Shown: positions 5,890-62,259 of the stretch, one piece after another
Numbering within the stretch: the stretch's first letter is position 1
How the letters are laid out: every line of letters starts with the position of its first letter
From: a virus
Taxonomy: Duplodnaviria > Caudoviricetes
Length of the DNA: 64,000 bases
Virus record (IMG/VR): IMGVR_UViG_3300035698_029580
Reading direction: 5' to 3' (one strand)
Program-made: the position numbers and the translations under genes
Notes under the pieces: generated by a model
Database searches by the model: none
Told to the model about the DNA's origin: nothing
The model's input: the letters and a program-made list of their open reading frames with translations, nothing else

Positions 5890-5900
5890 TTTTTATAAAA

Positions 5901-6352: not shown

Positions 6353-6359
6353 TTAAATT

Positions 6360-19021: not shown

Positions 19022-19031
19022 GGTAATAATT

Positions 19032-19136: not shown

Positions 19137-19146
19137 GGTAAATTAA

Positions 19147-19380: not shown

Positions 19381-19392
19381 AAAGGAATAATC

Positions 19393-19740: not shown

Positions 19741-19744
19741 TATT

Positions 19745-20113: not shown

Positions 20114-20143
20114 CAATTATTTTAAATATTAGAAAGTGAAAAA

Positions 20144-21161: not shown

Positions 21162-21181
21162 TTATTTAATAGGAGAAAAAA

Positions 21182-21640
21182 ATGAAAATTAGAAATGGTT
21201 TTGTAAGTAATAGTAGTTCTTCTTCCTTTGTTATTATTGGTCATCAAATAAAAATGGGAGGTAATTATGAAAAAATTTGTCGTATTTTTTTACCAGAAGA
21301 TTTTATTGAAAAAGAAATGGATAGTTGGGATTATAATAAAATGGAGGATAAGCATCAGAAAGAAAATTTTTGGGCAGAGATTTTTTATGAGAATTTAAGT
21401 GATATAAAAAATGAATTTGTGTGCTATTCATCATATAGTATACTCGGACATAGTGAAGATTGGGAGTTTTTTGGAAAACTATTATATTATAAATATGACG
21501 ATCCAGGAATTTATGATGATATTGAAGTGAAGGCTCCTCTTTCTGAAATTATTGAGGGCATAAGAAAAGAAGTTGAGAGATTGGGAATGCAAGACCAAGT
21601 AAGTGAAATAATGATTTATAGTGGAGTTAAATCAGATTAA
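21182..21640 (+). CDS. SNSSS-tag protein copy 5
   Basis: MKIRNGFVSNSSSSSF. Confidence 0.85.
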   Translation: MKIRNGFVSNSSSSSFVIIGHQIKMGGNYEKICRIFLPEDFIEKEMDSWDYNKMEDKHQKENFWAEIFYENLSDIKNEFVCYSSYSILGHSEDWEFFGKLLYYKYDDPGIYDDIEVKAPLSEIIEGIRKEVERLGMQDQVSEIMIYSGVKSD

Positions 21641-21641
21641 A

Positions 21642-21935
21642 ATGAAAATTAGAAATGGTTTTGTTTCAAATAGCAGTTCTTCTAGTTTTGTTATTAAAAA
21701 ATATGTTTTAAGTAAAAAACAAATAGATGCTATTTATGATCATATAAATTATGCAAAAAATAATTTTTCAGAAATGGAAGAAACAAGTGATTTAAATGAT
21801 GGATCTGCATGGGTAATAGTAGAAGGTGAAAAAAAAATATATTGCAGCACATTTATGAATAATTTTGATTTACATGAGTTTTTAATAAAAATAGGTGTTG
21901 ATGATAAAGATATTCGTGACTTGGAAGTGTTTTAA
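21642..21935 (+). CDS. SNSSS-tag protein copy 6
   Basis: MKIRNGFVSNSSSSSF at ATG 21642 (ORF track start extends upstream). Confidence 0.85.
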   Translation: MKIRNGFVSNSSSSSFVIKKYVLSKKQIDAIYDHINYAKNNFSEMEETSDLNDGSAWVIVEGEKKIYCSTFMNNFDLHEFLIKIGVDDKDIRDLEVF

Positions 21936-21951
21936 TCTAAAGGAGAAATCA

Positions 21952-22299
21952 ATGAAATTTAGACAAGGTTTTGTATTAAATAGTGGTACAACTAGGGTTG
22001 ATGTTTATGGGACTATTATAAAGGCTGAAGATATGGAAGAAATTCTTGTAAAAAAAAATATTGTACAAAAAAATTCTGAAGGTGATCGTGATATATATGA
22101 TTTTCTTAATGACTTAACAGAAAAAGAAAAAATAGTTTGGGATCATCAAGAAGAACCTGAGGGAGAATATTATATTGGATTAAAAATAACAGAAATGGAA
22201 GACAATGAAACTCTTGACCAATTTAAAAAACGAATAGGAAACAAAATAGAAGAAATATTCGGTGAAAAATTATATGTTGAATTAATTCTTTCCACTTAA
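21952..22299 (+). CDS. SNSSS-tag protein copy 7 (degenerate tag)
   Basis: MKFRQGFVLNSGTT at ATG 21952 behind AAGGAG. Confidence 0.8.
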   Translation: MKFRQGFVLNSGTTRVDVYGTIIKAEDMEEILVKKNIVQKNSEGDRDIYDFLNDLTEKEKIVWDHQEEPEGEYYIGLKITEMEDNETLDQFKKRIGNKIEEIFGEKLYVELILST

Positions 22300-22321
22300 T
22301 CATTGTTAAAGGAGATTTAAA

Positions 22322-22690
22322 ATGAAATTTAGACAAGGATTTGTATCAAACAGTAGTACCACGAGCTTTTGTATTTGTGGAATTAGTACAAATGAAGAAC
22401 AGTTAGAAGATTGGTTAAAAGATAAAGTTTCCGAAGAGGAGAAAGAAGAAGATGATTATGAGGTATATGATATAGTCGAAGAACTTTGTGACAAAGAAGG
22501 TCTTTCAGTGCATGCGGAACCCGATAGTTATTATTCTTATTGGATAGGACTTGATATACAAAAATTGGATGATAATGAAACGTTGAAAGATTTTAAAAAC
22601 AAAACAAAAGAAAAACTTAAAAAAATATTTGGAGATAATATTGATAAAAAAATCATTAATATTATTGAAAAAGCTTGGCATGATGGTTAA
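22322..22690 (+). CDS. SNSSS-tag protein copy 8
   Basis: MKFRQGFVSNSSTTSFCICGI. Confidence 0.85.
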   Translation: MKFRQGFVSNSSTTSFCICGISTNEEQLEDWLKDKVSEEEKEEDDYEVYDIVEELCDKEGLSVHAEPDSYYSYWIGLDIQKLDDNETLKDFKNKTKEKLKKIFGDNIDKKIINIIEKAWHDG

Positions 22691-22720
22691 AACATATGAT
22701 ATTCTTTAAAGGAGAAATTA

Positions 22721-23071
22721 ATGAAATTTAGACAAGGTTTTGTATCAAACAGTAGTACCACGAGCTTTTGTATTTGTGGAATTTGTCTAGATAGAAAAAA
22801 TATGGAAGAATTAATAGAAGAAAAAAATGTTGATGGAAAAGATATAAATGAGAGATTGTTGGAAAAACTTTGTAAGGCAGAGGGACTTGCCAGTATTGCT
22901 GATCCAGAAGATGAGTATTATTATATTGGAATTAATGTAGAAGATATGGATGAGGATAAGACAATAAGAGATGTTAAAAAAGAAGCAAAGGAAAAAATAA
23001 AAAAATTGTTCGGAGATAATGCTGATAAACATAATGTTAGAGTCATTACTGATGGTTGGTATAATGGTTGA
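22721..23071 (+). CDS. SNSSS-tag protein copy 9
   Basis: MKFRQGFVSNSSTTSFCICGI; first ~60 nt nearly identical to copy 8. Confidence 0.85.
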   Translation: MKFRQGFVSNSSTTSFCICGICLDRKNMEELIEEKNVDGKDINERLLEKLCKAEGLASIADPEDEYYYIGINVEDMDEDKTIRDVKKEAKEKIKKLFGDNADKHNVRVITDGWYNG

Positions 23072-23121
23072 TTGTAAGAGTTTTAACTAAGTATTTTATT
23101 TATTTTTGAAAAGGAAAAGTT

Positions 23122-23817
23122 ATGAGTGGAAAAGTGCAAGTTCATCATTTAATTATTTTGGACAAAAGTAGTTCAATGCTAGAAGTTTGTAGTGAAACTA
23201 TTGATGGATGTAATAAACAATTTGATGTAATTCGTAAAATGTCAGAAGAAAATCCAGAACAAGAACATTTTGTTTCTATGGTCATATTTAGCTATTCTCA
23301 TAAAATAGATATGGAAACAATATGGATGAAAAAATCAGATGAAGTGGAAAATATTAATGAAGAAAGTTATGTTCCTCAGGGATACACGGCTTTATTTGAT
23401 GCCATAGGTAAAGGCGTGACAAAACTACAAACAGAAATACAGGAACAATTAAATAATAGAGGTGCTAGAGTTGTTGTTACAATATTGACAGATGGTTATG
23501 AAAATAATTCTCAAGAATTTACTGGTAAGAAGATTAAATCTTTAATAGATGAACATCAAAAAGGTGGTTTATGGACAATTACGATGGCTGGATGTACTGA
23601 TGATGTATTCAATGTAGCAGATAATCTTAATATTTGCAGAGGAAATGTTCTTAAATATGATATGGGAGCAGTAGGAACTACTAATGCTTTTGCTAAAATG
23701 GCAAAGAGTCGTTGCATGTATTGTTCTTCCATAGGGACAGATGTAGAATTAAAAGCGACATCAAGTTATTATTCTCAAGATGAAGAAAAGAAAGATGAAG
23801 AAAAGAAAGATGATTAA
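23122..23817 (+). CDS. vWA domain protein
   Basis: MIDAS DKSSS, TALFDAIG, LTDGYEN. Confidence 0.85.
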   Translation: MSGKVQVHHLIILDKSSSMLEVCSETIDGCNKQFDVIRKMSEENPEQEHFVSMVIFSYSHKIDMETIWMKKSDEVENINEESYVPQGYTALFDAIGKGVTKLQTEIQEQLNNRGARVVVTILTDGYENNSQEFTGKKIKSLIDEHQKGGLWTITMAGCTDDVFNVADNLNICRGNVLKYDMGAVGTTNAFAKMAKSRCMYCSSIGTDVELKATSSYYSQDEEKKDEEKKDD

Positions 23818-24074
23818 AATTTTCTAATTGGACATCTAAAGTGGGGGTCCTGGAATATAATTTCTAGGACCTTTCCACTTTTTTTACATCTTTTTTTAAC
23901 TGTTTTTTGTGGAGGTCTAGTTGTTTTTGTCATAAAGTAGATTTTATCAACATGAGGACAACTTTTACATATTTTTGGTCTAATATCTAGAAGTTTAATT
24001 CTTTTGTCTTTTAGTATTGGTTTAGCACTTTTATTTTTTATTGCAGAAGCTCTTTTTCCACAGCCACATCCCAT
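23814..24074 (-). CDS. small basic Cys-rich protein
   Basis: MGCGCGK, CKSC, C..CPIRKF; last gene of the minus-strand array. Confidence 0.65.
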   Translation of the reverse strand: MGCGCGKRASAIKNKSAKPILKDKRIKLLDIRPKICKSCPHVDKIYFMTKTTRPPQKTVKKRCKKSGKVLEIIFQDPHFRCPIRKF

Positions 24075-24850
24075 TATCTAACTCCTCTCATTTTTTGGAT
24101 TAGGTTATTTCTTCTAATTCTTCCTACTTGATGATACCATTTTGAATCTACCATTTCATCGGCAGCTTTTTGGAAATCTCTTCTTATTAAAGCTTGTCTA
24201 AATCTTTTAAACTGTCTTAATCTATTTGGTCCCATAGCAAATGCCATATCAATAATAACTTGTTGAACAGCATCATCATATGTTTCAAAATTGGGTAAAA
24301 AAGAATGTGCTATATCGGAGGCTTCGAAAAAGGTATATTCAAATAATTTATTTATTTGTTCGTCTGTAAGACCAACTTTTCCATTAATAATGTCATTATA
24401 ATTTAGTCCAAAACTTTCTATTTTTTGTTTAGCATCTGGTCTATTTAACATATATCCTATTCCTATTGTTTTGTTTCCTAATGGACCGGGATATACAAAA
24501 TTTCTTCTTCCCTCATGCTGAGATATCATATCTCTAGTTTTTTGAATAAAATTATTTTGATCTGTATTTTTTCTTTCTACGGAAGTTCCTTGGGGATTTT
24601 CTTGTGTTGCAGGAATATTTTGTTGTGTTATTTCTTGTGTTTGTTGAGGGGTTGTATTTTCTTGTTTTTTTATTTCTTGGACACCTTGTATTACTGTTTG
24701 GGGAGATTGTTTAAAAAGATCTTTAACTTCTAGAATTCCTATTCCCCATAGACCTGCCAAACCTAATAAAGCTGTTAGTCCAGTCATTTGAACAAATCTA
24801 TTCCATCTAAACTCTTCTTCTGCTATTTTTGTTTGATTGTACCAATTCAT
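24074..24850 (-). CDS. GH24 (T4-like) lysozyme with MNWY leader and TM segment
   Basis: HEG..VY...GNKTIGIG, DMAFAMG, AADEMVDSKWYHQV. Confidence 0.85.
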   Translation of the reverse strand: MNWYNQTKIAEEEFRWNRFVQMTGLTALLGLAGLWGIGILEVKDLFKQSPQTVIQGVQEIKKQENTTPQQTQEITQQNIPATQENPQGTSVERKNTDQNNFIQKTRDMISQHEGRRNFVYPGPLGNKTIGIGYMLNRPDAKQKIESFGLNYNDIINGKVGLTDEQINKLFEYTFFEASDIAHSFLPNFETYDDAVQQVIIDMAFAMGPNRLRQFKRFRQALIRRDFQKAADEMVDSKWYHQVGRIRRNNLIQKMRGVR

Positions 24851-24851
24851 A

Positions 24852-25214
24852 TTAAATTGTTGTTTCTCCTATATATCCACCTTCGGCAGAAAAAGTTATT
24901 ATTTTAATATTATTCCCAAATTCTTTTTTTAATTTATTAATAATAACATTGGGAATATCCCAATACCATTCATAAGGAGTCATAATGGATACCTCCATAG
25001 TGTTCGGATCATATCTACCTCGGAATTTTTTTTCGAATGCTTTTTCTAAGCCTCCTTCCATCATATTTCCATGTCCTTCAATATACCATCCTTCTTCGAC
25101 TTTAAAATTACTACCATCGGGATTACTCATCCATAACATATTTTCATTACCAGAGCCAACTCCAGAATGCCCTATATCTCCGTAATTTTTTTGTGCTAAT
25201 TTATACCAATTCAT
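24852..25214 (-). CDS. MNWYK-leader protein, IGH/GRYD family
   Basis: MNWYKLAQ start at 25214 (ATGA overlap with upstream stop); paralog of 28122 and 28498. Confidence 0.8.
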   Translation of the reverse strand: MNWYKLAQKNYGDIGHSGVGSGNENMLWMSNPDGSNFKVEEGWYIEGHGNMMEGGLEKAFEKKFRGRYDPNTMEVSIMTPYEWYWDIPNVIINKLKKEFGNNIKIITFSAEGGYIGETTI

Positions 25215-25855
25215 TTTCTTATCCATAATGTTAAATCGTCTTTAACCTCTTCCCAGTGAGGTATATAAATTTTTTCTATTTCTTTCCATTCTGAATCAAG
25301 AAGATTATAAAATTGGTCATTAGCTGTACATCCTTTCCATTCTCCCACCAAAATTAGTTTATTTCCTTCAAAAAATGCTAATGCTTCATATGCCATGGGA
25401 CTACCGCAGGGAGGCCAAACCATCATTAATGTATCAAAATGACCATATTTTTCAATAGCATCTAAATGATCCATTTTCTCTATGTCTGTAAATCTTTTAC
25501 TCTCAGGCTTATAATATTTTTCATTTTGTCTTTCTATAACACCTAAATCTGTAGCTGTTACAGATATTCCTTCGTCTCTCATTAATTTAGCCCAGAGCCC
25601 ATACCCTGACCCTATTTCTAATACATTGCCTTGTTCTACGAAAATTTTTATTTTTTCGATTGCTTCTTTATCTGGGACTCCCCATCCATATTCTTTTATA
25701 TATCTGTTTCTTCTCAACCATGGACGAGTAAGATCAGAGTTCCAAAAGTTAAGTTCTTCTTCTGAAGGTTCAGATGCATATTCTTTACCTTCAGGCCCAA
25801 ATTTATTTAAATCTTCATAAATATCAGCTATTTTTTTATTTTTATACCAATTCAT
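25211..25855 (-). CDS. MNWYK-leader SAM-dependent methyltransferase
   Basis: VLEIGSGYGLW, VTATD, VWPP, LVGE. Confidence 0.8.
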   Translation of the reverse strand: MNWYKNKKIADIYEDLNKFGPEGKEYASEPSEEELNFWNSDLTRPWLRRNRYIKEYGWGVPDKEAIEKIKIFVEQGNVLEIGSGYGLWAKLMRDEGISVTATDLGVIERQNEKYYKPESKRFTDIEKMDHLDAIEKYGHFDTLMMVWPPCGSPMAYEALAFFEGNKLILVGEWKGCTANDQFYNLLDSEWKEIEKIYIPHWEEVKDDLTLWIRK

Positions 25856-26876
25856 ATTCTACCTCTCCTATTAAATCTACCGTCTTTCCACTCCATGTTC
25901 TCCATTCCCCTAATGCCGATACTTTATATCCTAGTGATCCAGGTATAGATCTGAATTCTAATATAGCAATTTGGTCTTCTGGAACACTATATAAACCTTG
26001 TTCATCACTAAATGCAAATAATCCATATTCTGGACCACCTGCCTGTTCTCTCATCCACGCCCATGTATGATATGCTTTAAATTTTCTATAAACTTTTTCT
26101 TTGTTAGTTAATATTTTTTTAAATTTTCTGTATGTTGGAGGAATTCTATTCCCTGTTTCTGATTCTTCTATAGGTCCCCAATTTTCTTTTTTATTTTTAT
26201 TAAATTCTTTTACTGTTGATGGGAATAATGTTGCACTCGTGATTTCATAGTCAGAATTAACATAATTTATTATCTCTTCTACGGTTCCTGTCCCTACTGC
26301 GTGTTTTTGAGCTTGTATCCATTCATTTACCCAAGGTTTTTTTGCTCCGATTCCATTTTGAGCTTGCATTATCATATCTTCTATAGATAATTCTCCAAAC
26401 ATGACCTTTCTGCCCTCAATCAAAGTTCTATATATATCTTGAGATACTTTTAAATTTTCTGTGAAACTAATTGTATCACTACTTCCTCCTCCTAGCCCTC
26501 TTCCTCCTTTTTGAGATAGATCATCTCTAGTTCTTAATTGATCTTTTATCACTTCATTTTTAGATGTTGTTACATGATATAAAGTTTCAGGGAGAGGAAG
26601 GAGTTGTCCATGACCAGGAATTTTATATGAATTCTCTTGATATCTATCTTGAGTTAAATCATAACCTAAATTAAATGCTTCTGATGGACTTATTTTTCCA
26701 GTTGCTAAAGATTTAGATATCTCACTATCCCACTCTTTTTGTTTTGTTCTAATATTATCAAATATTATAGTTTTCTGTTCATCGGATAAATTATCATAAT
26801 CATGAGGATAGTTTCTACCAGAATAATCATTTCTAGAAATTTGTAATATATTTTGTGCTAATTTATACCAATTCAT
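25842..26876 (-). CDS. MNWYK-leader protein with possible ADP-ribosyltransferase fold
   Basis: TLYHVT...GGRGLGGG..TISFT. Confidence 0.6.
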   Translation of the reverse strand: MNWYKLAQNILQISRNDYSGRNYPHDYDNLSDEQKTIIFDNIRTKQKEWDSEISKSLATGKISPSEAFNLGYDLTQDRYQENSYKIPGHGQLLPLPETLYHVTTSKNEVIKDQLRTRDDLSQKGGRGLGGGSSDTISFTENLKVSQDIYRTLIEGRKVMFGELSIEDMIMQAQNGIGAKKPWVNEWIQAQKHAVGTGTVEEIINYVNSDYEITSATLFPSTVKEFNKNKKENWGPIEESETGNRIPPTYRKFKKILTNKEKVYRKFKAYHTWAWMREQAGGPEYGLFAFSDEQGLYSVPEDQIAILEFRSIPGSLGYKVSALGEWRTWSGKTVDLIGEVEYELV

Positions 26877-26879
26877 TAT

Positions 26880-27608
26880 TTATCCATAATTAATTTTTTT
26901 AACAGGAAGATTGTTTGTCTCAATATAATTAATCATCTTTTTTAACCTGTCTATATAACTGCTTAATTGACTATAACTTCTTCCATAGTCATACATTGCA
27001 GATTGTCCAGGAGTTTTTTCTTCAGTTGGTTCTTGGGTATAGGTATTTATTGTGAAATCATTGTCTTCTATATTTTTTATAGCAGATTTTAATTCATCTA
27101 TATTTAATGTCCCTCCATAGGGATCTAAATTACTCATTCCTTCATTTTGCAACAATTGTATCAATGCTACACTATTTGCATTTGCTATATTTATTTCTGG
27201 CAATTTTTCTAGATCTGTTGTGTTGTTTTCTTCAACTAATACTCTAGCAACATTTATGTCTCTTGCACCGGACTTATTTATTTCTAAAAATTTTAACTTA
27301 ATTAAACCCATTCTATTATTATTATATTGGTCTACTATATTTTTTATAATTCCACTTTTTATATTAGGATTTTCTAGATAAATATTAATTTGCCCAGTAG
27401 GAGCAAAAGTATCTCCAGAACTCATATCAGGATCAACATCTTGCCACCCAATACCTAATTTTTGTCCAATATTCATCTCATAAATTATAAACTTGGATAA
27501 ATCACTACAAACTTCTAATTTATTCATAGGTTGAGTTATTTTATCAGAGCCTTCAATCCAGAAGGTGACACTAGACTGTTTATAAAATGCTAATTTATAC
27601 CAATTCAT
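26880..27608 (-). CDS. MNWYK-leader hypothetical protein
   Basis: MNWYKLAF start at 27608 (ATGA overlap). Confidence 0.75.
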   Translation of the reverse strand: MNWYKLAFYKQSSVTFWIEGSDKITQPMNKLEVCSDLSKFIIYEMNIGQKLGIGWQDVDPDMSSGDTFAPTGQINIYLENPNIKSGIIKNIVDQYNNNRMGLIKLKFLEINKSGARDINVARVLVEENNTTDLEKLPEINIANANSVALIQLLQNEGMSNLDPYGGTLNIDELKSAIKNIEDNDFTINTYTQEPTEEKTPGQSAMYDYGRSYSQLSSYIDRLKKMINYIETNNLPVKKINYG

Positions 27609-28111
27609 TCGGGCCATACTCCAAATCTTCTTAAGAATTTTTCCATTTTATTACCTATTAAAATTTGTACAGGGCCAATATTTCCTTCAGAATAATAATC
27701 TCCTGGTTCTACACTTGGGTATCTATTGTCTGTTTCTCCCTGCCAATCACCCAAAGGACCCTCTTCTTCTTCTGGTCTATGTTCAAATTGATCTTCCCCT
27801 TCTTTTATAATAACTAACATACCATAACTTTTTAATTCATTAGGAGTTACGTCTCCCCATTTTTTATTTAACATTTTCATTACTGCGTATTGCATAGCAT
27901 TAACTGCTCTTTGTAATCCTTGTTTGTCTGTAGCATAAGTCACATCAACAGGATCAAACTCTATTCCTGCAGATTCATATTCTCCGGCATAAGAATCTGA
28001 AACAAAATCACCTGTATCAGGGATGAGTCCTATATCTTTTATGGAATCGTAGTTATTAATAGAGGTTCCGTGATAAAGAGTTCTGGATTTTGCTTTTTTA
28101 TACCAATTCAT
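27605..28111 (-). CDS. MNWYK-leader protein with possible ADP-ribosyltransferase fold
   Basis: TLYHGTS....SIKDIGLIP...VTYAT. Confidence 0.6.
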   Translation of the reverse strand: MNWYKKAKSRTLYHGTSINNYDSIKDIGLIPDTGDFVSDSYAGEYESAGIEFDPVDVTYATDKQGLQRAVNAMQYAVMKMLNKKWGDVTPNELKSYGMLVIIKEGEDQFEHRPEEEEGPLGDWQGETDNRYPSVEPGDYYSEGNIGPVQILIGNKMEKFLRRFGVWPE

Positions 28112-28121
28112 TTATTCTTTT

Positions 28122-28496
28122 TCAATAAGTATATATTTGAGTTATGTTAGGGAATTTACTGTAGAGTTTATTTACTAAACGAGAAGGAACACCGCGGAAT
28201 GCATTTAATCCTTTTAAGGGTACAATTATACTTAATTTTCCAGTACTAGTTTCATATCTACCTTGGTATGTTCTACTAAAAGAAAAATTTTCATCATTAA
28301 AAACATAACCAAAAGCATCATCATGAGTGGGTTCTTCTTCTGTTTCTGGACGAACTGCTAGAATTCCATTGTAATATATCCAAAGATAATTATTTAGTGT
28401 GTCTTCGTCCTCAGTCAGTTTAGCATGACCAATATTAAGATAAGATGGTTTATCTAGTGTTTGTTGAGATAATATTGTTCTTTTATACCAATTCAT
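28122..28496 (-). CDS. MNWYK-leader protein, IGH/GRYD family
   Basis: YLNIGH, HDDAF, YQGRYE, KLYSKFP. Confidence 0.8.
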   Translation of the reverse strand: MNWYKRTILSQQTLDKPSYLNIGHAKLTEDEDTLNNYLWIYYNGILAVRPETEEEPTHDDAFGYVFNDENFSFSRTYQGRYETSTGKLSIIVPLKGLNAFRGVPSRLVNKLYSKFPNITQIYTY

Positions 28497-28497
28497 T

Positions 28498-28881
28498 TTA
28501 ATTATAATAAAATATTTGTTTTATGTCGGGAAATTTTTTATAAAGTTTACTAATTAAAGCATTAGGTGGTTCTCTATGTGCATTTACTCCGGTAACTGGT
28601 TTGACGACACTCAAATAACCTGTTACTGGATCAAATCTACCATTATATATATAATCACTATCTATGTTTGGGAATGCTTCTCTATGATGTTCTTTTCCTT
28701 TTTGTTCTTTAATAACATCTATTCTTCCATTTAAATATACCCACATATATCCCACATCTTTTCTGTCATAAGGATTTTGAATATTATGTACATTTCTTTT
28801 GTAACTTCTATGTCCTATCTCGAAATACATAGGTTGTTCTTCTAATTCTTGAGAATATATTATTCTTTTATACCAGTTCAT
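28498..28881 (-). CDS. MNWYK-leader protein, IGH/GRYD family
   Basis: YFEIGH, HREAF, YNGRFD, KLYKKFP. Confidence 0.8.
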   Translation of the reverse strand: MNWYKRIIYSQELEEQPMYFEIGHRSYKRNVHNIQNPYDRKDVGYMWVYLNGRIDVIKEQKGKEHHREAFPNIDSDYIYNGRFDPVTGYLSVVKPVTGVNAHREPPNALISKLYKKFPDIKQIFYYN

Positions 28882-28885: not shown

Positions 28886-28915
28886 TTTATTAGTAATTTT
28901 TTGTTAAATATCCTT
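28886..28915 (-). promoter_or_regulatory. putative late promoter AAGGA-N19-AATAAA driving the MNWYK array
   Basis: Same architecture as sites at 44072, 48212, 55674, 57300, 59045; ATG lies 4 nt downstream. Confidence 0.55.
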
Positions 28916-28951
28916 CAAAATAGTCGATAAAACAATAGATAAGGAGATATT

Positions 28952-29314
28952 ATGATTGATTTTTTTATATGTTTAATAATAAGCGTTCTTGTTTCTTATG
29001 GTTCGGCAATAGCTTTAGTGGAAAAAGGCAATGAATATCCTATTCGTAAATATAAACTTTTGTTAAAATTATTTATACATGATCATATTAGTTGGAAATT
29101 CTGTCAAGTTTTAGATTGCAGTACCTGTAGTAGTTTTTGGAATTCTTTTTTTATTGACTGTATTTTATGTGTTTTTGTATTTTTGATATTTGGAAATTTT
29201 TATTTTTTCTGGCCCTTTAGTGGTTTTATTACTTTAGGTTTTACATGGTTTATTATCGAATTTTTAAATGCTATAGATAAAAAACAAGATATCAATATTT
29301 TTACAGAAAAATAA
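28952..29314 (+). CDS. membrane protein with CxxC (DUF1360-like)
   Basis: Hydrophobic helices, LDCSTCSSFW. Confidence 0.55.
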   Translation: MIDFFICLIISVLVSYGSAIALVEKGNEYPIRKYKLLLKLFIHDHISWKFCQVLDCSTCSSFWNSFFIDCILCVFVFLIFGNFYFFWPFSGFITLGFTWFIIEFLNAIDKKQDINIFTEK

Positions 29315-29379
29315 ATATTTTTAAAAAATAAATGATTTCTTGTTCAATATTTGAAATAAAGAATAGGAGATTGTTTATT

Positions 29380-30288
29380 ATGGCTATTAAATATCTGTTT
29401 TTTGTTTTTTTCTTATTGTTTATTGCTGGCTGCAAACCTGCCATTATACCTCATTTTTCACAAAGTGATTTTAACTTAGCAGAAGATATAACTACTGTCT
29501 CCACAAGTATTTCTGATACAACAGGTGGAATAAGAGACACTAATAATCAAATTAGAGAAAATGCTGTTTCAATTAGAAATTCTGCAGAAACAGTTTCAAC
29601 TGGACTTTTATCAGGAAGTAATCTTAACTCAGAAGTAGAAATAATAAAAAGTAAATCTGTAGATATTCTCTCTCATACGGATAATATTGCCAAATTAACA
29701 GGACAATTAGAATTAGCTCAGGGAAACCTACAGATATCTGTTGCTAAAGTTGATCAAATTAAAGAAAATAATAAAATATTACAAAAAGAAAAAGATGAAG
29801 TTATAAATGAAAATGAAAAATTAAAACAAGAAATACAAGCCACTCAGCAAAGAATGTTTAAGGTTACTACTTTTCTATTCCCTATTTGTGCTATAGGTAT
29901 AGGTTTGAGTGCTGCTCTTATATTTTTTAAACAAATTAAATTTGGTATAGCAGGAATTGTAGCATGTGGGACTACTATTGTGGTAGCCATTACCATTAGT
30001 AAAATGGCAGCTTATTTGGCTATAGCAGGTGCCATTATTTTATTATTAATTATGGGATTTATTGTATGGCATTTATTTGTCAACCGTAAGACAATCTTTG
30101 AATTAGTAGAGACTGTAGAGGTAGCAAAAGATAATATGTCTGAAGATGCTAAAACAAAAGTTTTTGGAGACAATAAGAACCCAGGGTTAGCAGATAAATT
30201 ACAGAGTCCAAATACAAAAACAGTAGTTAAAACAGAGAAAAAGAACATAGGAAATCTCTGGTCATATGCAAAAGGTAAAACACCTTAA
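29380..30288 (+). CDS. lipoprotein with coiled coil and C-terminal TM helices (spanin/holin-like)
   Basis: Lipobox FIAG-C after ATG 29380, long coiled coil, ~3 TM segments. Confidence 0.55.
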   Translation: MAIKYLFFVFFLLFIAGCKPAIIPHFSQSDFNLAEDITTVSTSISDTTGGIRDTNNQIRENAVSIRNSAETVSTGLLSGSNLNSEVEIIKSKSVDILSHTDNIAKLTGQLELAQGNLQISVAKVDQIKENNKILQKEKDEVINENEKLKQEIQATQQRMFKVTTFLFPICAIGIGLSAALIFFKQIKFGIAGIVACGTTIVVAITISKMAAYLAIAGAIILLLIMGFIVWHLFVNRKTIFELVETVEVAKDNMSEDAKTKVFGDNKNPGLADKLQSPNTKTVVKTEKKNIGNLWSYAKGKTP

Positions 30289-31059
30289 TTAGTCTCTTTT
30301 GTATGATGGAGGTAATGCATTTTTATGAGCAGATTTAGCTATTAATTCTTTTACCTTTTCTGTTGCTTCTTTAGAAACTTCATCTCGTAAACCCTTGAGA
30401 TAACGTAAGGTATTGTCTAAATCTTCATATGACAAACCTAATTCTTTTTCATCTGTTTGTCCTTTCCAAAGACCTGCACTGGGAACTTTTTCTATTATTT
30501 TAGAAGGTATATCAAGATATTTTGCCAATTGATAAATTTCTGTTTTGTAGTATTTTCCGATTGGTTCGATGTCAACTCCTCCATCACCAAATTTACTAAA
30601 ATAGCCGCATAAAATTTCTGATAGATTTCCTGTTCCTGCTACAAGAAATTTATATATTTCAGATTGGGCATACAAACATGTCATTCTTAATCTTGCTTTA
30701 ATATTTCCTATCTCTAATTTGGTCATTTTTATAGCTTTATTATATCCTTTTTCTTTGGTTGTTTTTATAAAATGACATTTTTTAAATTCATCTAATACAT
30801 TATTGAGTTGAATAATTGTATAATGTATATCTAACTTAGAAGCCACTAGTATAGCATCTTCTTTATCATTTAGATTAGAAAAACAAGGCATAATTAATGC
30901 CAATACTTTATCTTTTCCTACGGCTTCTTTAGCTAATGCTGCTACTACTGAACTATCAATACCTCCGCTTAAGCCAAGAACATAGCCTAAAGTTCCGGCA
31001 TTTTTACAATAATCTCTCATCCAAGAACTTATATTTTTTATTTCTTTTTGGTAGTCCAT
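30289..31059 (-). CDS. nadE: NH3-dependent NAD+ synthetase
   Basis: GLSGGIDSS, NIKARLRM, GYFSKFGDG, PSAGLW.GQTDE. Confidence 0.95.
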   Translation of the reverse strand: MDYQKEIKNISSWMRDYCKNAGTLGYVLGLSGGIDSSVVAALAKEAVGKDKVLALIMPCFSNLNDKEDAILVASKLDIHYTIIQLNNVLDEFKKCHFIKTTKEKGYNKAIKMTKLEIGNIKARLRMTCLYAQSEIYKFLVAGTGNLSEILCGYFSKFGDGGVDIEPIGKYYKTEIYQLAKYLDIPSKIIEKVPSAGLWKGQTDEKELGLSYEDLDNTLRYLKGLRDEVSKEATEKVKELIAKSAHKNALPPSYKRD

Positions 31060-31062
31060 TCT

Positions 31063-48280: not shown

Positions 48281-49201
48281 ATGAAATCATTTAACCTAAA
48301 TAAGCAGGCAAAAAACGACTATATTTCAACTGAAAAGATGTTAAATCAGTATAATCAAGATAAGAAGAACAAGTCTCCTGATACTATCACAGATATGACA
48401 TTGGGAGAAAATGGTAGAAAAGATGCTGACAATACAGTGCCATTAGACACTCAGCTTTCTGCAGTTATGCCCTCTGTAAAACAAGATACTATAGTAGAAT
48501 CTAGATTAGATAAAGAAGGCAAAGATGGTAAGGGCATGAATGATAAGAGATTAGATTTATGGGATACAAATATTAGTACATATGCATTATTGTCAGAATC
48601 TTATGATCAAAAAAAATTACGTGCTTTTAATGATGCTAACAAAGAAAAAAGAGACACAAGTTTTTGGGACAAATATGTTGGTCAACAAATGGAGGGGAAA
48701 GAAACAACAATAGTTAGTGATTTACAACGTAGTCAGCTAGAAAATGATCCAGAACGATTTAAAAAGATGTCTGTAAAAGGAAATATGGTTGAAAATGTTA
48801 AAAAATTCATCACGAAACAAGATTTAGAAAAGATGGTTTCTGCTTCTATAAAGGATGCTGATAGTATGTTATTTCATATTTATGCTAATTCTTTTTCAGA
48901 GGGCAGAGAATTGAATGATAAAGAAAAACAAATAGTTAGAGATATAAATGCTGGCAAATTAAGAAAATTTTGTCAAAAATCTAGTTGGATGGATGTGTCT
49001 AGTTTATCTTTTGATGATATGGCAGGGGGAAAACTTCCTCAAGAAGAACCGTGGCAAGAAACACCTAGAGAATATGATGATATTACAATAAAACAAGAAA
49101 ATGGAAAAGCTGTAGTTTATGAAGAAAATATTCCTATAGATAACTATGCGTCAGTAAGAGAAGCTAAGGACAATTATCCCGAAGCTAAGATTGTTCAATA
49201 A
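48281..49201 (+). CDS. putative virion protein
   Basis: Behind promoter motif at 48212; starts MKSFNLNKQAK. Confidence 0.6.
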   Translation: MKSFNLNKQAKNDYISTEKMLNQYNQDKKNKSPDTITDMTLGENGRKDADNTVPLDTQLSAVMPSVKQDTIVESRLDKEGKDGKGMNDKRLDLWDTNISTYALLSESYDQKKLRAFNDANKEKRDTSFWDKYVGQQMEGKETTIVSDLQRSQLENDPERFKKMSVKGNMVENVKKFITKQDLEKMVSASIKDADSMLFHIYANSFSEGRELNDKEKQIVRDINAGKLRKFCQKSSWMDVSSLSFDDMAGGKLPQEEPWQETPREYDDITIKQENGKAVVYEENIPIDNYASVREAKDNYPEAKIVQ

Positions 49202-49214: not shown

Positions 49215-49643
49215 ATGAGTAATTGGTATAAAATTAGTGCTCTTAGTCATCTTTCTAGATGGTATGTTCAAATACAAGCTAATATCTGGGTCCCACCACA
49301 AGAAACTGAAGAACAAACAATAAAATTGGCTAGAGAAGCTCTCAAAAATCATCTTCCTCAAAATGGAGATGCCAGTAGTAGGTCTGGTATAGATTCGTTT
49401 GTTAGATATACTATACAAGAGGTTAAACCATTTGGTGGTAGAAAGTCCTACGGTCGTGTTCGTTATTTAGGAGTGATTACAGCAGATGTGTGGGTCCCTC
49501 CTCAGGAAAATAAAGAAGAAGAATATTCTACAGCATATCGAGTTGTGATAAATCATTTAGATAATAATGATGATGCTGGAGCCAGACTAGGAATAGATGC
49601 TAGCGTAAATTATATAATTACGGAATTGGAACTATACAGGTGA
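49215..49643 (+). CDS. NWYK-leader protein with tandem duplicated domain
   Basis: MSNWYKISA; two A.(I/V)WVPPQE...NHL..N.DA..R.GID..V.Y.I units. Confidence 0.75.
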   Translation: MSNWYKISALSHLSRWYVQIQANIWVPPQETEEQTIKLAREALKNHLPQNGDASSRSGIDSFVRYTIQEVKPFGGRKSYGRVRYLGVITADVWVPPQENKEEEYSTAYRVVINHLDNNDDAGARLGIDASVNYIITELELYR

Positions 49644-50104
49644 ACTGGTATAAAAAAAAATTAGCTCATAGAGGTAATTTTCCCAAAGCATGGGATATTG
49701 ATAATATGCTACAGGTTCGTCAAGATCCTTATGCTTGGTATAAAGATAAATTAACGATGCCATCAGATGAAAATATTAGTGGTGGATTAGGAACAAGAGC
49801 TAGAGGCGGAGATTGGCCAGAAGATATCAGTGCTAATAAAGATATGTATGATCAACAACGAAAAATGGATATTCCTGGAGAAGAAGTTATAATGGATTTA
49901 CCTCATTGGGAAGGTATTCCTCCAGGTGCATTAGCAGATCCTGTAGACGCAATTAGTTTAAATAGAAAAACAATGGATGAGTTGTCTAGTCCTTCTCCAC
50001 CCGTTGGTCCTTATAATCTACAGTCTGGTCGTAGAAAAAGACATTATCCTAGAAGGTTGAATAAGGATACTTTTGATTATATTGCAGTTAATCAAAAGAG
50101 TTAA
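49640..50104 (+). CDS. NWYK-leader protein
   Basis: GTG start, NWYKKKLA. Confidence 0.75.
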   Translation: MNWYKKKLAHRGNFPKAWDIDNMLQVRQDPYAWYKDKLTMPSDENISGGLGTRARGGDWPEDISANKDMYDQQRKMDIPGEEVIMDLPHWEGIPPGALADPVDAISLNRKTMDELSSPSPPVGPYNLQSGRRKRHYPRRLNKDTFDYIAVNQKS

Positions 50105-52944: not shown

Positions 52945-53388
52945 ATGAAAATAATTATTACAGCTAAAGCTAAGTTAAAAGAAGTTGAAATGTTTGGAAC
53001 TTTAAAACAAACAAAAGATGGATTTGTATATCTTGATGTTTCTAATGATATAATTGATGGTTTATTTTCTTTAATAAATTCTGATAATAAAGAAAAACCC
53101 CCTTATAATCTTAAGTCTTTTAATAGTGTAGGTGCTCATGTTTCTGTTATAGGTACTGATGAATATAATGATAATGAAATAGGTAAAATTGAGGAACTGG
53201 GAGAGGAAATCAGTTTTAAGCCAGATAAATTTTCTCAGGTAAATCCTGATGGTTGGGACGAAATGGAAAAAGTATATTTTTTAAAGGTAAAATCTCCTAG
53301 ACTTGAAGAAATACGTAAAAATTATGGATTATCTAAAAAACAAAATGGACACGAATTTCATATTACTTTTGCGGTAGAAAGAAAATGA
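52945..53388 (+). CDS. 2H phosphoesterase family protein
   Basis: Two Hx(S/T) motifs: AHVSV and FHITF. Confidence 0.75.
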   Translation: MKIIITAKAKLKEVEMFGTLKQTKDGFVYLDVSNDIIDGLFSLINSDNKEKPPYNLKSFNSVGAHVSVIGTDEYNDNEIGKIEELGEEISFKPDKFSQVNPDGWDEMEKVYFLKVKSPRLEEIRKNYGLSKKQNGHEFHITFAVERK

Positions 53389-57379: not shown

Positions 57380-59029
57380 TTGAATTTTAGTATAAAAAAT
57401 AAATTAGCACAGGAGCAGATAAATACTGATGACATAAATAATAAAGTTGAAGAAGAGACGTATGATACTCCTGTAATTGATGAAAATAACCTTAATGATT
57501 ATTTGGCTGATAATTTTGAAGAAGATGAAAAACAAGTTATAGTTCCAGAAGATCAAGTAGATACTATCGAAGTAGAAAGCCCAGAAGTAGTTGCTCCAGA
57601 TGAGAATTTACCGGAATTTGGAAATAATTTTGAGGCTATGAAGTGGGCTCAAGATAATCAAAAAGTTGTAAGAATTAATTACATAACGAAAAAAGGTATT
57701 GATCTATCAAGATTAGTAGAGGTTCATGGTATTATTTCTGCTAATACTGGTAATACCATAGTTGTTACATTTGATAGAACAATAGGTGAAATACGAGCAT
57801 TTATAATCGATAATATTGTAAATTATGCAATATTAGAACAAGATTTTATACCAAAATTTAAAGTGCAATCCAGAAAAAGGATAATGGCTATGAAAACAAA
57901 CTCTCTTTTACAATTAAAAACAATTGGTGATGAATTAGACTCCCTTAAATTATATAAGGGGGCTGCTGTTGTTACTGGAATGATGGAGGATATATTTAAT
58001 TATAAACAAGCTCAATATGAGGGATTTCAAGGACATTGGATAAGAAATAGTCGTTGTTTTGGCAATTGTTATCGTCAAAAAAGAGCCACTAAGAAAGAAA
58101 TGCCAGCCCAAGAAGTTTGGATGGAATGTCAAAAAGAATATGAAGTTGCTTTAAGTGGAGATACTGAAAGTTGGGATAAATATGCTGGTAAAGATAAATT
58201 TATGACCAAAACAGCAAGTAAAAATTCTCAGGAATTATTTAAAAAAGAACAAAAGGTATTTAACTCCCTTTTAAATAGAAAGATAAAAAGTGGTATGGCT
58301 TTTGAAAATGCTGTTTTTGCTTCTATTGAAGAAGGAAAAAATAGATATAACGATATGTTATTAGATGATACAACAGCATTGATGAGTATGGCTAAGAAAT
58401 TGAAAGAAAATGGACATTCTGAATTATCTCAGAAATGTGCAGAAGCTTCGGCTCAGATAATAAAAGAAGCTCAATTTTGGCAAGGAGTAGGAGATGTTGC
58501 CAGGGGAATAGGAAGAGATATTGGAAATAAGGCTAAGGATATGTGGGGTAGAGGGCAGCAGACAGTAGATAGATATAAGCAACAAGGAGATGAACGTAGA
58601 GAAATGGCATTAGCTAATAAAATTATAAATGATTTAAAACAACACCATCAACAATCAGATGTTATAAAAAATAATTATAGAAATTTAAGAAATGGAGTTG
58701 TAAGCTACTTGCAACAGCAATTGCCAGTCTTACGCCAAACTAGTAATCCTATTTCCAACAGAATTTCTATGGAAATAGAACGAAATTTACCAACAATATT
58801 ACAAAATGGTTCTGTAAAGAATTTAATTCCTGCACTAGAAGCAATTTTGAATGGCACAAATCAACCTGTCCAAACTCAACAAGGGGCAAATCAACCACCC
58901 GTAGATTTACAAAATACTTCATTTGATACCAATCAATCTCAGGGAGTTTCAAATACTTCATATGCCAATCCTTCTGCCAATGTCCAAATGAATAGACCGA
59001 GGAAGGTTTTGGAAAATACTGTATCTTAA
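57380..59029 (+). CDS. multi-domain protein with WYL-like domain, probable virion component
   Basis: VVRINY...SRLVEVHG...VVTFD...EIRAFIIDNI; several KxAQ sites. Confidence 0.6.
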   Translation: MNFSIKNKLAQEQINTDDINNKVEEETYDTPVIDENNLNDYLADNFEEDEKQVIVPEDQVDTIEVESPEVVAPDENLPEFGNNFEAMKWAQDNQKVVRINYITKKGIDLSRLVEVHGIISANTGNTIVVTFDRTIGEIRAFIIDNIVNYAILEQDFIPKFKVQSRKRIMAMKTNSLLQLKTIGDELDSLKLYKGAAVVTGMMEDIFNYKQAQYEGFQGHWIRNSRCFGNCYRQKRATKKEMPAQEVWMECQKEYEVALSGDTESWDKYAGKDKFMTKTASKNSQELFKKEQKVFNSLLNRKIKSGMAFENAVFASIEEGKNRYNDMLLDDTTALMSMAKKLKENGHSELSQKCAEASAQIIKEAQFWQGVGDVARGIGRDIGNKAKDMWGRGQQTVDRYKQQGDERREMALANKIINDLKQHHQQSDVIKNNYRNLRNGVVSYLQQQLPVLRQTSNPISNRISMEIERNLPTILQNGSVKNLIPALEAILNGTNQPVQTQQGANQPPVDLQNTSFDTNQSQGVSNTSYANPSANVQMNRPRKVLENTVS

Positions 59030-61131: not shown

Positions 61132-62259
61132 ATGTATGATCCAATAATTATTAATCAAGCGATTGAATTAATAAGGCAAAGTAGAATGGAAGTTCCTCAA
61201 GATCCTGCCGCTATTATCACTTTAGCTAATGAACTTCAATCTGCGTCTCAAATAGGAGGCGAAGTAATGGATAATATACAAGATGTGGCGAATACTCAAG
61301 AACAAATTGGAATACAACAACAGGAAATAGAGAATATGGCTATAGCCAGTAAAAAATTCAATTTATCTAAATACTCTCAAGAACAACCCTTCTATATGGA
61401 CGACATAGCATTAAATGATAATTCTGAATTAGCGGGAGATCAATTAGAAACTCAAGAAGTGTCTGGACCTCCATTTTTACGAGGAGCAGATTTAGCTGAC
61501 TGGATGAACACAATGGACAGGTTCGAAACACGTAATCAAATTCTTGGTGCTATTAATGAAGAAAATCAACAAATTGTTGAAGATTTAATAGATGGTTATT
61601 ATGAGGGTTCCGATATGAATGAACAAGAAATAATTGCTACCCAATTGTTTGAAATGTTGCCTCCAGAATGGCATAAAGCTGATATGGAAGATGAATCTGC
61701 CATTATAGCTCCCTTGGTAGAAGCAGTAGAAAATACAGAAAATATAATAAAAAAATTAGCTCAAAAATATGCAAAAGAACATAAAAAAGATTCTTCATTT
61801 AATCTCACTAAAACTGCCCAACATAAAGCATTTGATACTTCAACTATTATGTATGGTCCTTCTGAAGTTCGTATAGATCCTTTTTATCGTCAACCTGTTT
61901 CTGATTATAGTGTTCTAGAAAGAAACAAAGGTTTTGGATTAGTTGTTGATGATGTTTGGGATATCGATTGGGAGACTATTTGGAGAGGTACTGTTATGGA
62001 TAAATATTCACGTCCATATCGTACCAATGATGGAAAATGGGTTGGTGGATATATAGAAAAAAGATTTGAAGTTGATAATAATGTCCCAGAAACTAATAAC
62101 TTACAATTAAAACCAGGACAAAGAAGAAGACCATATCTACCAGAATTTGCTGGAACAGAAGCTCGTCTTGAAAGTATGAGAGAAAAAGATGATAGAGGAT
62201 ATGGTCCATTTACCGAAGGAAAACCTTTTAATTGGAAAGAAGCTAAAAAAAAAACTTAA
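61132..62259 (+). CDS. putative virion protein
   Basis: FNLSKYSQ and FNLTKTAQ sites; ends in an A10 run. Confidence 0.65.
   Translation: MYDPIIINQAIELIRQSRMEVPQDPAAIITLANELQSASQIGGEVMDNIQDVANTQEQIGIQQQEIENMAIASKKFNLSKYSQEQPFYMDDIALNDNSELAGDQLETQEVSGPPFLRGADLADWMNTMDRFETRNQILGAINEENQQIVEDLIDGYYEGSDMNEQEIIATQLFEMLPPEWHKADMEDESAIIAPLVEAVENTENIIKKLAQKYAKEHKKDSSFNLTKTAQHKAFDTSTIMYGPSEVRIDPFYRQPVSDYSVLERNKGFGLVVDDVWDIDWETIWRGTVMDKYSRPYRTNDGKWVGGYIEKRFEVDNNVPETNNLQLKPGQRRRPYLPEFAGTEARLESMREKDDRGYGPFTEGKPFNWKEAKKKT

Follow-up and report, generated by a model that had tools for sequence, protein, structure and literature searches.

Encapsulin cargo-loading peptides are short, usually C-terminal and uncleaved, and load unrelated enzymes into an HK97-fold shell. 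For the internal proteins of phage T4, a capsid-targeting sequence (CTS) is said to have been delineated by Mullaney and Black in 1996. The T4 CTS, carried by IPI, IPII, IPIII and Alt, provides the experimental precedent for a peptide of this kind, since packaging has been proven there (PMC9026906). In the giant phages phiKZ and SPN3US, many non-structural proteins are loaded into the head, and the prohead protease removes N-terminal propeptides from head and ejection proteins by cutting at A-X-E, a motif whose copies recur within the propeptides (PMC10052503). Staphylococcal phages have an N-terminal motif, cut by Prp, that is common to L27 and to capsid, scaffold and tail proteins and whose role is unclear (PMC5744158). 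Finally, for polyvalent proteins (Iyer et al., 2017), packaging and injection have been predicted, with entry alongside the DNA as infection begins (PMC5512222).

Here we describe an N-terminal peptide, the MNWYK tag, in a stretch of 64,000 nucleotides of caudoviricete DNA (the window), for which no published description was found in the literature, including that on capsid-targeting sequences and huge-phage propeptides. Eight consecutive minus-strand genes at 24074-28881 open with MNWY(K/N), as the preliminary description had it, and the tags that it spelled out read as given there. When at most one mismatch was allowed, ATGAAYTGGTAYAA had eight matches in the window, all on the minus strand (24850, 25214, 25855, 26876, 27608, 28111, 28496 and 28881), and every one was the start of an open reading frame (ORF) of 120-344 aa; shuffles gave a mean of 0.23 matches, and 0 of 100 attained eight. 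Two of these ORFs have a further in-frame ATG three to four codons 5' of MNWYK, and MNWYK is favoured as the true start in both because its start codon overlaps the stop of the gene before it (ATGA). Together with two genes just 3' of the terminase gene, the window contains ten tagged genes. Comparison of the array with 50,697 phage records by blastn gave no match. Two membrane-protein genes stand divergent to the array and are still adjacent to it in two related loci (L097 and L132); PHROGs gave neither of them a holin or spanin name. A second tag system lies next door in the same genome and consists of a radical SAM enzyme and nine genes with Ser-rich tags.

The bodies behind the tag belong to unrelated families, although these number six rather than the eight first claimed, because three of the genes are paralogs. 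The paralogs belong to the IGH/GRY family (28498..28881, 127 aa, MNWYKRIIYSQ; 28122..28496, 124 aa, MNWYKRTILSQ; 24852..25214, 120 aa, MNWYKLAQ; all array genes on the minus strand) and are linked by BLASTP E values of 7e-23 to 1e-4, with every other pair in the array at E > 0.5. This large family had no match among known folds, the best being gelsolin-like at Z 5.6, and a single AAA_33 match was found among its fusions. The gene at 24074..24850 (258 aa, MNWYNQTKIAE) encodes, in order, the tag, a hydrophobic segment (residues 22-40), a Q/P/E-rich linker and a GH24 lysozyme, which scores above the PF00959 gathering cut-off (23.1 versus 22.3 bits) and matches phrog_2083, an internal virion lysozyme motif, at E 1.7e-8. 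The gene at 25211..25855 (214 aa, MNWYKNKKIAD) encodes a class I methyltransferase with a variable linker after the tag. Of the two proteins first called ADP-ribosyltransferase-like, the call is supported for one, and the other offers a weak lead. The 168-aa protein (27605..28111, MNWYKKAKS followed by TLYHGT) was modelled at pLDDT 86; all 50 of its top 50 structural matches have the ADP-ribosyltransferase fold, the NAD domain of Tpt1/KptA matches in VIA at a middling Z of 7.5-8.1 (rmsd 2.2-3.0 over 84-90 residues), and an H-Y-E-type triad (H14, Y41, E135) is invariant in the family. The model therefore supports an ADP-ribosyltransferase fold, with a putative enzymatic activity. The 344-aa protein (25842..26876, MNWYKLAQ; LYHVTT / GLGGG family) had no match in Pfam or PHROGs and only a weak Atlas lead to Arr-ms (0.86), so the same reading is putative here; when the 168-aa and 344-aa families were aligned with hhalign, the eight tag columns aligned and nothing more. 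The remaining protein (26880..27608, 242 aa, MNWYKLAF) is without a known family, and its homolog in L135 opens MNWFK. Two array bodies, the 344-aa and 242-aa proteins, accordingly have no assigned function.

The tag behaves as a module. The linker between tag and domain ranges from 0 to ~45 aa, and in two otherwise confident models the tag has a pLDDT of 55-59; in the AF2 model of the 124-aa paralog (pLDDT 84) it is a low-confidence helix at residues 3-11, outside the fold. Beyond the window, 108 tagged ORFs fell into 68 BLAST clusters of bodies. Homologs of the ART-fold protein were tagged in 50 of 55 cases and those of the 344-aa protein in 17 of 25, the distant homologs being untagged. Leaders can also be exchanged on one body: MNWYK heads 121 of 150 IGH representatives and the others open MSFNL.., MKIYRIAQ or MNYFNLLKFS, while the 2H-SAK phosphoesterase of the window (52945..53388, plus strand) opens with the alternative leader MKIIITAKA and its homologs in L031 and L137 with MNWYK and MNNWYN. 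The leaders MKII..TA and xFNL..K.A occur on other bodies as well. In related genomes the array occupies the same site with different cargo, in line with the exchangeable content that had been envisaged for it. Pfam assignments among the tagged proteins include ART-PolyVal, 2H-SAK, PcfJ, zeta toxin, Tad6, Acb1, GNAT, SLT and lysozyme; in relatives the tag is also found on some large metabolic enzymes, G6PD among them, and cargo proteins are mostly acidic.

The tag was found in viral contigs, including complete genomes of 296-548 kb, whose portals are 51-70% identical to that of the window phage, and a search of 596 Gb of cellular genomes recovered real tags in two short MAG contigs only; it is essentially a virus-only label. 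The degenerate pattern MNWYKxAQ outperformed a fixed 15-mer for finding tagged loci; the latter hit viral contigs mostly by chance, and at 102 of 120 loci no ORF began with the tag. No related viral loci were retrieved when the terminase alone was the query, and a 40-mer taken from the end of the window had no exact match in viral_contigs or metagenome_contigs.

The two tagged genes outside the array lie on the plus strand 3' of the terminase gene and were described earlier as further copies in the head module. Both are there, but the block around them is not purely a head block, as it also carries RyR-domain, 2H-phosphoesterase and DUF192 genes. The first (49215..49643) starts MSNWYK (MSNWYKISA) and encodes an internal duplication of a ~70-aa unit; the second (49640..50104) has a GTG start and reads VNWYKKKLA. 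Orthologs of both occur in G001 and L038, so that the pair is kept in three genomes. Directly 3' of the terminase gene, a 306-aa protein (48281..49201, plus strand) has the related leader MKSFNLNKQAK. The earlier claim that the array sits behind the promoter motif of structural genes receives partial support. A promoter-like motif, AGGA-N8-AAAAAAT, lies 33 nt upstream of the array (28896..28916, minus strand), and intergenic AGGA-N6-9-A6T, a short motif defined after the data had been seen, occurs three times only, upstream of the array, of 48281 and of 57380, which makes it common to two portal/terminase-proximal operons. The array is without the TATAAT boxes found at early-looking operons, and in G001 TAGAGG stands 5' of the MNWYK genes as well as of those in the head module.

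A connection with head proteins appears in the second half of the tag, K-x-A-Q/K/S. Internal K-x-A-[QKS] shows a 6.6-fold higher density in the products of the genes that run from 57380 to the end of the window (p 1.4e-5). The protease-scaffold, which lies beyond the window end, was studied through the syntenic relative G001, where the head block shows a 9.2-fold higher density of the motif (p 3e-9); this block includes a 1834-aa protein matching the head maturation protease phrog_18299 (E 5e-9) and adjoins the major capsid protein gene. The related F-N-[LWY]-x-K-x-[AS] has five occurrences versus 0.8 in shuffles. In the window, a 549-aa portal-proximal protein (57380..59029, plus strand) has the leader MNFSIKNKLAQ and five K-x-A-[QKS] sites, one of them an internal FNYKQAQ, and a 375-aa protein just upstream of the portal (61132..62259, plus strand) contains FNLSKYSQ, SSFNLTKTAQHK and a C-terminal PFNWKEA. 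SSFNLTKTAQHK is invariant where the divergent part of this protein meets the conserved part; between the window and G001, SSFNL(T/K)KTAQHK is invariant exactly at the junction of the divergent N-terminal half and the conserved domain. Pfam S77/S78 models had no match in five complete relatives; for PF03420 (gp21, S77) the control genomes gave no match either. The protease region had no match to PDB sequences by phmmer.

From these patterns we propose for the MNWYK tag a role in addressing and trimming, analogous to that of the T4 CTS, most likely loading enzymes into the head, a reading to which we assign about an even chance. The tag, written MNWYK-x-[A/S]-[Q/K] or MNWYK-x-x-K-h-[A/S] (h, hydrophobic), would be the short modular N-terminal address of one huge-phage clade. 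During prohead assembly it would dock unrelated accessory enzymes on the scaffold/protease core; the head-maturation protease would then cut the K-x-A part and free the enzyme inside the head, and the enzymes would exit together with the DNA and work in the newly infected host ahead of any phage gene expression. The array at 24074-28881 would be a cassette of such cargo that turns over fast. What is observed of the packaging address and swappable cassette first suggested is the modular peptide, the unrelated bodies, the turnover of cargo and the motif common with head proteins; from these we infer head-core binding, cleavage, late expression and injection of the tagged proteins, and a protease specificity for K-x-A is predicted in the same way. 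The shared sequence might also act as a recombination handle, as the preliminary description suggested. A bolder version falls somewhat short of an even chance: MNWYKxAQ, xFNLxKxA and MKI(I/Y)xTA may be dialects of a single K-x-A code. In a clade of 300-550 kb phages, the giant protease-scaffold would read this code, and a freely swappable arsenal of dozens of families (ADP-ribosyltransferases and Tad6-/Acb1-like anti-defence enzymes among them) would be loaded through it and injected.

The likeness to T4 lies in a short N-terminal peptide on unrelated proteins (~10-19 residues for the CTS), in a two-part layout in which the targeting half precedes one that resembles a protease site, and in a poorly conserved cargo set that includes an ADP-ribosyltransferase. 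The sequences themselves are unrelated (MKTYQEFIAE in T4 versus MNWYKxAQ here), and in place of the gp21 motif L/I-x-E, of which none is conserved at positions 1-12, the tags end in K-x-[AS]-[QK], with a predicted K-x-A site. The present clade is a different one, with a Mu-like portal and a giant protease-scaffold; its cargo families are far more numerous (68 clusters), its cargo is mostly acidic whereas T4 internal proteins are basic, and packaging, proven in T4, is a prediction here. As in phiKZ and SPN3US, many non-structural proteins are proposed to enter the head, but the propeptides there are long, share no common 8-residue tag and are cut at another motif. The domain repertoire overlaps that of polyvalent proteins (ART-PolyVal, 2H 'Swiss Army Knife', PcfJ, zeta toxin, GNAT and peptidoglycan hydrolases, here including SLT), which combine 2 to 15 disparate domains per polypeptide, often anchored through MuF or portal fusions, in contrast to the separate, single-domain cargo of 120-344 aa in the window. 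Encapsulins likewise address unrelated enzymes to an HK97-fold shell by a short terminal peptide, but their shell is no virion and delivers nothing to another cell.

Several features sit less easily with loading into the head. The tagged lysozyme is as compatible with a secreted endolysin as with an ejection protein, because its hydrophobic segment, like that of its homologs, is SAR-like. Large metabolic enzymes of the G6PD type would be odd as injected effectors, and the ~3 residues between the tag and the first strand in the ART-fold family are tight for a protease. Clade members whose head genes are homologous differ in their strict tag counts, from 1 up to 10, which indicates that the tag is dispensable for assembly itself. 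If the address reading is true, the tag singles out the genes that uncultivated huge phages bring to bear as soon as infection begins, accounts for anti-defence enzymes working before transcription begins, and offers both an 8-residue handle to package foreign proteins in large capsids and a simple sequence rule to find injected effectors in metagenomes; a true K-x-A code would amount to a natural, programmable means of protein delivery on a far larger scale than in T4. Should the capsid reading fail, there would still be a virus-only address peptide on >60 protein families to explain.

Among other explanations, the tag may be a propeptide for processing only, a site for a dedicated protease (of the phage head or of the host, as with Prp) that coordinates folding, assembly or activation and involves no virion carriage or injection. 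Phage 80alpha and its relatives have an L27-like N-terminal motif on non-homologous proteins that is cut by the host Prp (PMC5744158), the FNL..A motif here begins like NLQFFA, and K-x-A marks a domain boundary in one head-module protein. We nevertheless consider this unlikely, since eight residues are insufficient to mask an enzyme and the cargo is of accessory or anti-defence type rather than assembly parts, whereas the Prp motif (N-L-Q-[FL]-F-A|S) labels structural proteins. Mimicry of L27 for Prp in particular found no support: the tag and FNL leaders carry K-x-A and not F-F-A, the Prp homolog (PF04327) was absent from five complete relatives while control genomes did match, and L27 is without an N-terminal extension in both MAGs bearing tagged contigs, which are candidate hosts only.

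It is quite unlikely that the tag docks proteins on another phage hub, such as a replication factory, a membrane complex or a tag-modifying partner enzyme, with no capsid role. The neighbouring radical SAM system, the kept adjacency of the divergent membrane-protein genes and the predicted membrane anchor of one cargo protein are consistent with such a hub. Against it, the loci seen contain no receptor or modifying-enzyme candidate that co-varies with the array, and the motif is specifically common to portal-proximal proteins and the protease-scaffold.

Distinctly unlikely is a role as an N-terminal degron or unfoldase-recognition peptide for ClpXP or a similar AAA+ protease, giving accessory enzymes a common timed lifetime. 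ClpX N-motif 1, reportedly described by Flynn et al. in 2003, runs polar, T or hydrophobic, hydrophobic, basic, hydrophobic; N-W-Y-K-(L/I) resembles it, and the tag is strictly N-terminal. The residue after K, however, is hydrophobic in a minority of tags (K 37, Q 21, I 16, L 13), and the conserved [AS]-[QK], the equivalent FNL..K.A and MKII..TA leaders and the concentration of the motif inside head proteins would all be left unexplained.

That the 15 bases have no protein function, being instead an RNA element for translation initiation or regulation or a recombination relic between gene starts, is very improbable and largely refuted, although the eight window genes carry almost the same 15-mer, several of these lack a clear Shine-Dalgarno sequence, and AAC is enriched at codon 2 relative to background. 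Codon usage was examined in 90 tags from loci retrieved with a codon-degenerate pattern: codon 2 is AAC in 49 and AAT in 41, against a background of 77% AAT, and TAC, AAG, all four GCN codons and CAG are also present. Synonymous sites vary freely in relatives, starts include GTG and TTG, and residues are inserted after Met with NWYK retained (MSNWYK, MVNWYK; also MPNWYE). Because synonymous and start codons vary, conservation lies at the level of the peptide, and the purely nucleotide-level alternative allowed for in the preliminary description falls away; the tag is selected as a modular peptide and is maintained in genomes spanning 24-50% GC.

The window is phage DNA of 30% G+C and, allowing at most one mismatch, contains eight matches to ATGAAYTGGTAYAA, all on the minus strand and each opening one of eight tightly packed ORFs at 24074-28881; shuffled sequence gave a mean of 0.23 matches, and none of 100 shuffles reached eight. 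The run of eight consecutive minus-strand genes with a common MNWY(K/N) start described in the preliminary description is thereby borne out. The same holds for the two copies placed outside the array: a six-frame scan of the window returned ten ORF starts with NWY, namely the eight of the array and those at 49215 (MSNWYK) and 49640 (GTG start, VNWYKKK). Two array ORFs have a possible start 3-4 codons earlier; in both, the start codon of MNWYK overlaps the stop codon of the gene upstream (ATGA), which supports translation from MNWYK. A complete, syntenic huge-phage genome (G001) and locus L038 each encode, at the corresponding place, orthologs of the two small tagged genes that follow the terminase; the similarity is weak but significant. 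The first of them, 49215-49643, carries an internally duplicated unit of about 70 aa; its G001 ortholog is a single unit of 79 aa that aligns with residues 1-74 and 83-139.

When the eight array proteins were trimmed of their first 12 residues and compared all against all by BLASTP, only the genes at 24852, 28122 and 28498 were linked (E 7e-23 to 1e-4), so that the array holds six unrelated bodies rather than the eight-way diversity first proposed. The predicted lysozyme and methyltransferase were both recovered. The GH24 lysozyme (24074-24850, minus strand) scores just above the PF00959 cut-off and matches phrog_2083 at E 1.7e-8 ('internal virion lysozyme motif'); its tag leads into a hydrophobic segment at residues 22-40 and then a linker rich in Q, P and E, and its tagged homologs in loci L058 and L060 share this layout. 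The class I methyltransferase (25211-25855, minus strand) matches PF13489 and phrog_19090 (E 4e-28). Only one of the two suggested ART-like proteins held up. For the 168-aa protein at 27605-28111 (minus strand; predicted structure, pLDDT 86), all 50 of the top 50 structural matches were ADP-ribosyltransferase (ART) folds, the best being Tpt1/KptA NAD domains, with Z 7.5-8.1 and an rmsd of 2.2-3.0 across 84-90 residues, and H14, Y41 and E135 are invariant. For the 344-aa protein (25842-26876), an LYHVTT motif and a weak lead from the Atlas are the sole basis of the label, and profile-profile comparison of the two families aligned the eight tag columns and nothing else. Neither this protein nor that at 26880-27608 matched any family. 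The three paralogs belong to the IGH family, which comprises 724 clusters at 50% identity (E <= 1e-3) with conserved His, Trp, His and Gly-Arg; its fold gave no convincing structural match, the best being gelsolin-like (Z 5.6). Most ART-fold homologs (P0016-P0050) are about 230 aa long, with a C-terminal extension of about 60 residues ending in a conserved ..INELV that could be a second terminal signal; the window copy does not have it. Locus L135 encodes, at 4463-6355 on the minus strand, a 630-aa ORF starting MNWYKFAQ, with an internal Met-Asn-Trp-His-Lys-Glu-Ser-Gln at residue 306, the exact start of its homolog of the 344-aa protein; either two genes lack a stop between them here, or the product is a polyprotein carrying a second, internal tag.

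Among relatives, the cargo turns over at a constant site, as a comparison across genomes proposed at the outset brought out. Locus L097, collinear with window 28952-32903 at 25-59% identity, has a four-gene tagged array at the same site that shares only the IGH family with the window array; it also encodes an ART-PolyVal protein. In G001, the vWA and Ser-tagged genes known from the window likewise adjoin a tagged array, this one of four genes, none of them a clear homolog of any of the eight in the window. A Pfam survey of 89 tagged proteins from relatives found AAA_33 and GNAT (five proteins each), as well as cREC_REC, ART-PolyVal, PcfJ, DUF5661, zeta toxin, Tad6, Acb1, 2H-SAK, SLT, lysozyme, PolyA_pol and G6PD. 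Many of these families recur among the domains of polyvalent proteins, for which packaging and injection were predicted (Iyer et al., PMC5512222). The window's portal fragment (62763-63998) shares 68-70% identity with its counterparts in two complete viral genomes (548 and 461 kb), and 51-62% with those in three further genomes of 296-488 kb; strict tag counts in these five were 10, 9, 3, 2 and 1, against none for a reversed-pattern control. Across bacterial and archaeal genomes totalling 596 Gb, the pattern occurred at only 11 places, and this near-absence thus confines the tag to viruses: nine matches are chance occurrences in short or out-of-frame ORFs, and two lie on short MAG contigs with five and three consecutive tagged genes, which are probably mis-binned phage DNA. 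One of these (CAZYRX010000043.1, 19 kb, GC 0.28, five consecutive tagged genes) was binned as Halanaerobium, a halophilic anaerobe whose G+C is similar; for this salt-lake phage clade the binning is a weak pointer to the host and may be only a composition-driven artefact. A literature search found no paper describing the tag.

The tag is a modular peptide that is gained and lost on a given body. A codon-degenerate MNWYKxAQ pattern recovered 37 stretches in viral contigs, several contigs having more than one, and these loci contain 112 tagged ORF starts; the 108 tagged ORFs outside the window form 68 BLAST clusters. Conservation stops at residue 8 in a short form, MNWYK-x-[AS]-[QK], and at about residue 11 in a long form, MNWYK-x-x-K-h-[AS], and orthologs alternate between them (MNWYKKAKSRTLYHGT versus MNWYKKIKLATARTLYHGT). 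Of the 55 ART-fold homologs, 50 are tagged and the other five are the most distant; of 25 homologs found for the 344-aa protein, 17 are tagged, and it is again the distant ones that lack the tag. The tag-to-domain linker varies from 0 to about 45 residues in the methyltransferase family, and in both structure models the tag (pLDDT 55-59) lies outside the fold. Leaders are also exchanged: the 2H-SAK phosphoesterase at 52945 starts MKIIITAKA, while homologs start MNWYK (L031, 45% identical) or MNNWYN (L137, 42% identical), and 121 of the 150 best IGH representatives open with the tag, the others with MSFNL.., MKIYRIAQ or MNYFNLLKFS. The leader types MNWYK, xFNL..K.A and MKI..(T)A thus behave like variants of a single signal.

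Related motifs recur in head-module proteins; G001 is collinear with window positions 41-64 kb. Outside the first 12 residues of each protein, the density of K-x-A-[QKS] in the proteins encoded between 57380 and the window end (11 sites per 1,663 aa) is 6.6 times that elsewhere in the window (17 sites per 16,974 aa; p 1.4e-5); in G001 block 64,945-81,487 the motif is 9.2 times denser (p 3e-9), of which alanine content accounts for only about 1.5-fold. This block holds the portal and a 1834-aa protein whose residues 75-188 match the head maturation protease family phrog_18299 at E 5e-9; the G001 major capsid protein matches phrog_2522 (E 3e-63). The giant protease-scaffold (G001:C1:74390-79894, L161:4390-9894) starts MAIYKTAT, the MKII..TA leader class thus resembling the protease's own N-terminus, and has KTA[ST] at residues 5, 34 and 52, before the protease-matching region. 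Five copies of F-N-[LWY]-x-K-x-[AS] are present in the window (0.8 in shuffles), always within the proteins at 48281, 57380 and 61132, and F-N-L-x-K-x-A-Q aligns with N-W-Y-K-x-A-Q of the tag. Aligned with its G001 homolog, the 61132 protein has a divergent N-terminal half, an invariant SSFNL(T/K)KTAQHK and a well conserved domain with PFNWKEA at its end, a layout that would be expected of a processing site.

An address-and-trimming tag is the best-supported mechanism, and we give about half of our credence to the tag loading cargo into the capsid. The tag would dock on the scaffold/protease core as the prohead assembles, the head protease would cleave at the predicted K-x-A site, and the cargo would exit with the DNA. 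This proposed action is like that of the T4 capsid-targeting sequence, where the N-terminal 10 residues of IPIII are enough to direct packaging, a gp21 site lies at the peptide end and internal-protein genes differ among relatives (PMC9026906); the tag is not a member of that family, because its sequence and predicted cleavage motif both differ. Capsid loading sits less easily with the SAR-like anchor of the lysozyme (24074-24850), G6PD among the tagged proteins, the short tag-to-fold gap in the ART family and tag counts that differ among genomes with the same head genes. The remaining weight is shared by a propeptide that serves processing only, like the Prp motif of phage 80alpha (PMC5744158), a ClpX-type degron and docking to another hub. 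An RNA or recombination relic is unlikely: among 90 tags from the loci recovered with the codon-degenerate pattern, codon 2 is AAC in 49 and AAT in 41 (background 77% AAT), and TAC, AAG, all four GCN codons, CAG and GTG and TTG starts are used. The conservation, raised initially as a possibly pure nucleotide-level effect, is therefore not accounted for by a signal in the RNA.

TATAAT boxes are present at early-looking window operons and absent at the array. Of the seven copies of the element [AG]GGA-N6-9-AAAAAAT in the window, only three are intergenic, 33-79 nt upstream of the array, 48281 and 57380. In G001, 11 of 47 TAGAGG copies are intergenic, though intergenic DNA is only 8.5%, and the motif precedes two MNWYK genes, 59017, 60420 and the gene before the portal. 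These patterns suggest that the array is co-regulated with head-proximal operons; a promoter motif common to array and structural genes, as claimed at first, is supported in part only, the motifs themselves being short and defined post hoc from the same data.

Two membrane-protein genes adjoin the array divergently (28952-29314, 120 aa, several hydrophobic helices; 29332-30288, 318 aa, lipobox-like LFIAGC, coiled coil, C-terminal hydrophobic helices), as the pair still does in L097 and L132; a PHROGs search gave no name for either, and with the anchored lysozyme at the array's far end they could form a lysis cassette. Converging on the array is a radical-SAM operon (17972-23817; also L102:7019-10489) of genes starting MK(F/I)R(Q/N)GFVSNSS, with a vWA gene; this neighbourhood is kept in G001, and two different N-terminal tag systems thus travel together. 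At 53820-54607 (plus strand), ORFs have long Gly-Arg repeats (RGG/GRG, YGRGRGLG), seen as repeated AGAGGT; a 983-bp stretch of this region has no confident call in the greedy gene map. The terminase-to-portal block also contains a TnpB / IS605 OrfB-type gene (55822-57162; PF01385, PF07282; phrog_506, E 3e-110), followed at 57163-57379, just before 57380, by a GC-rich hairpin-like stretch, GGTGTCGCACCACGTAGGGGTGCGTGG, which could be its guide-RNA region.
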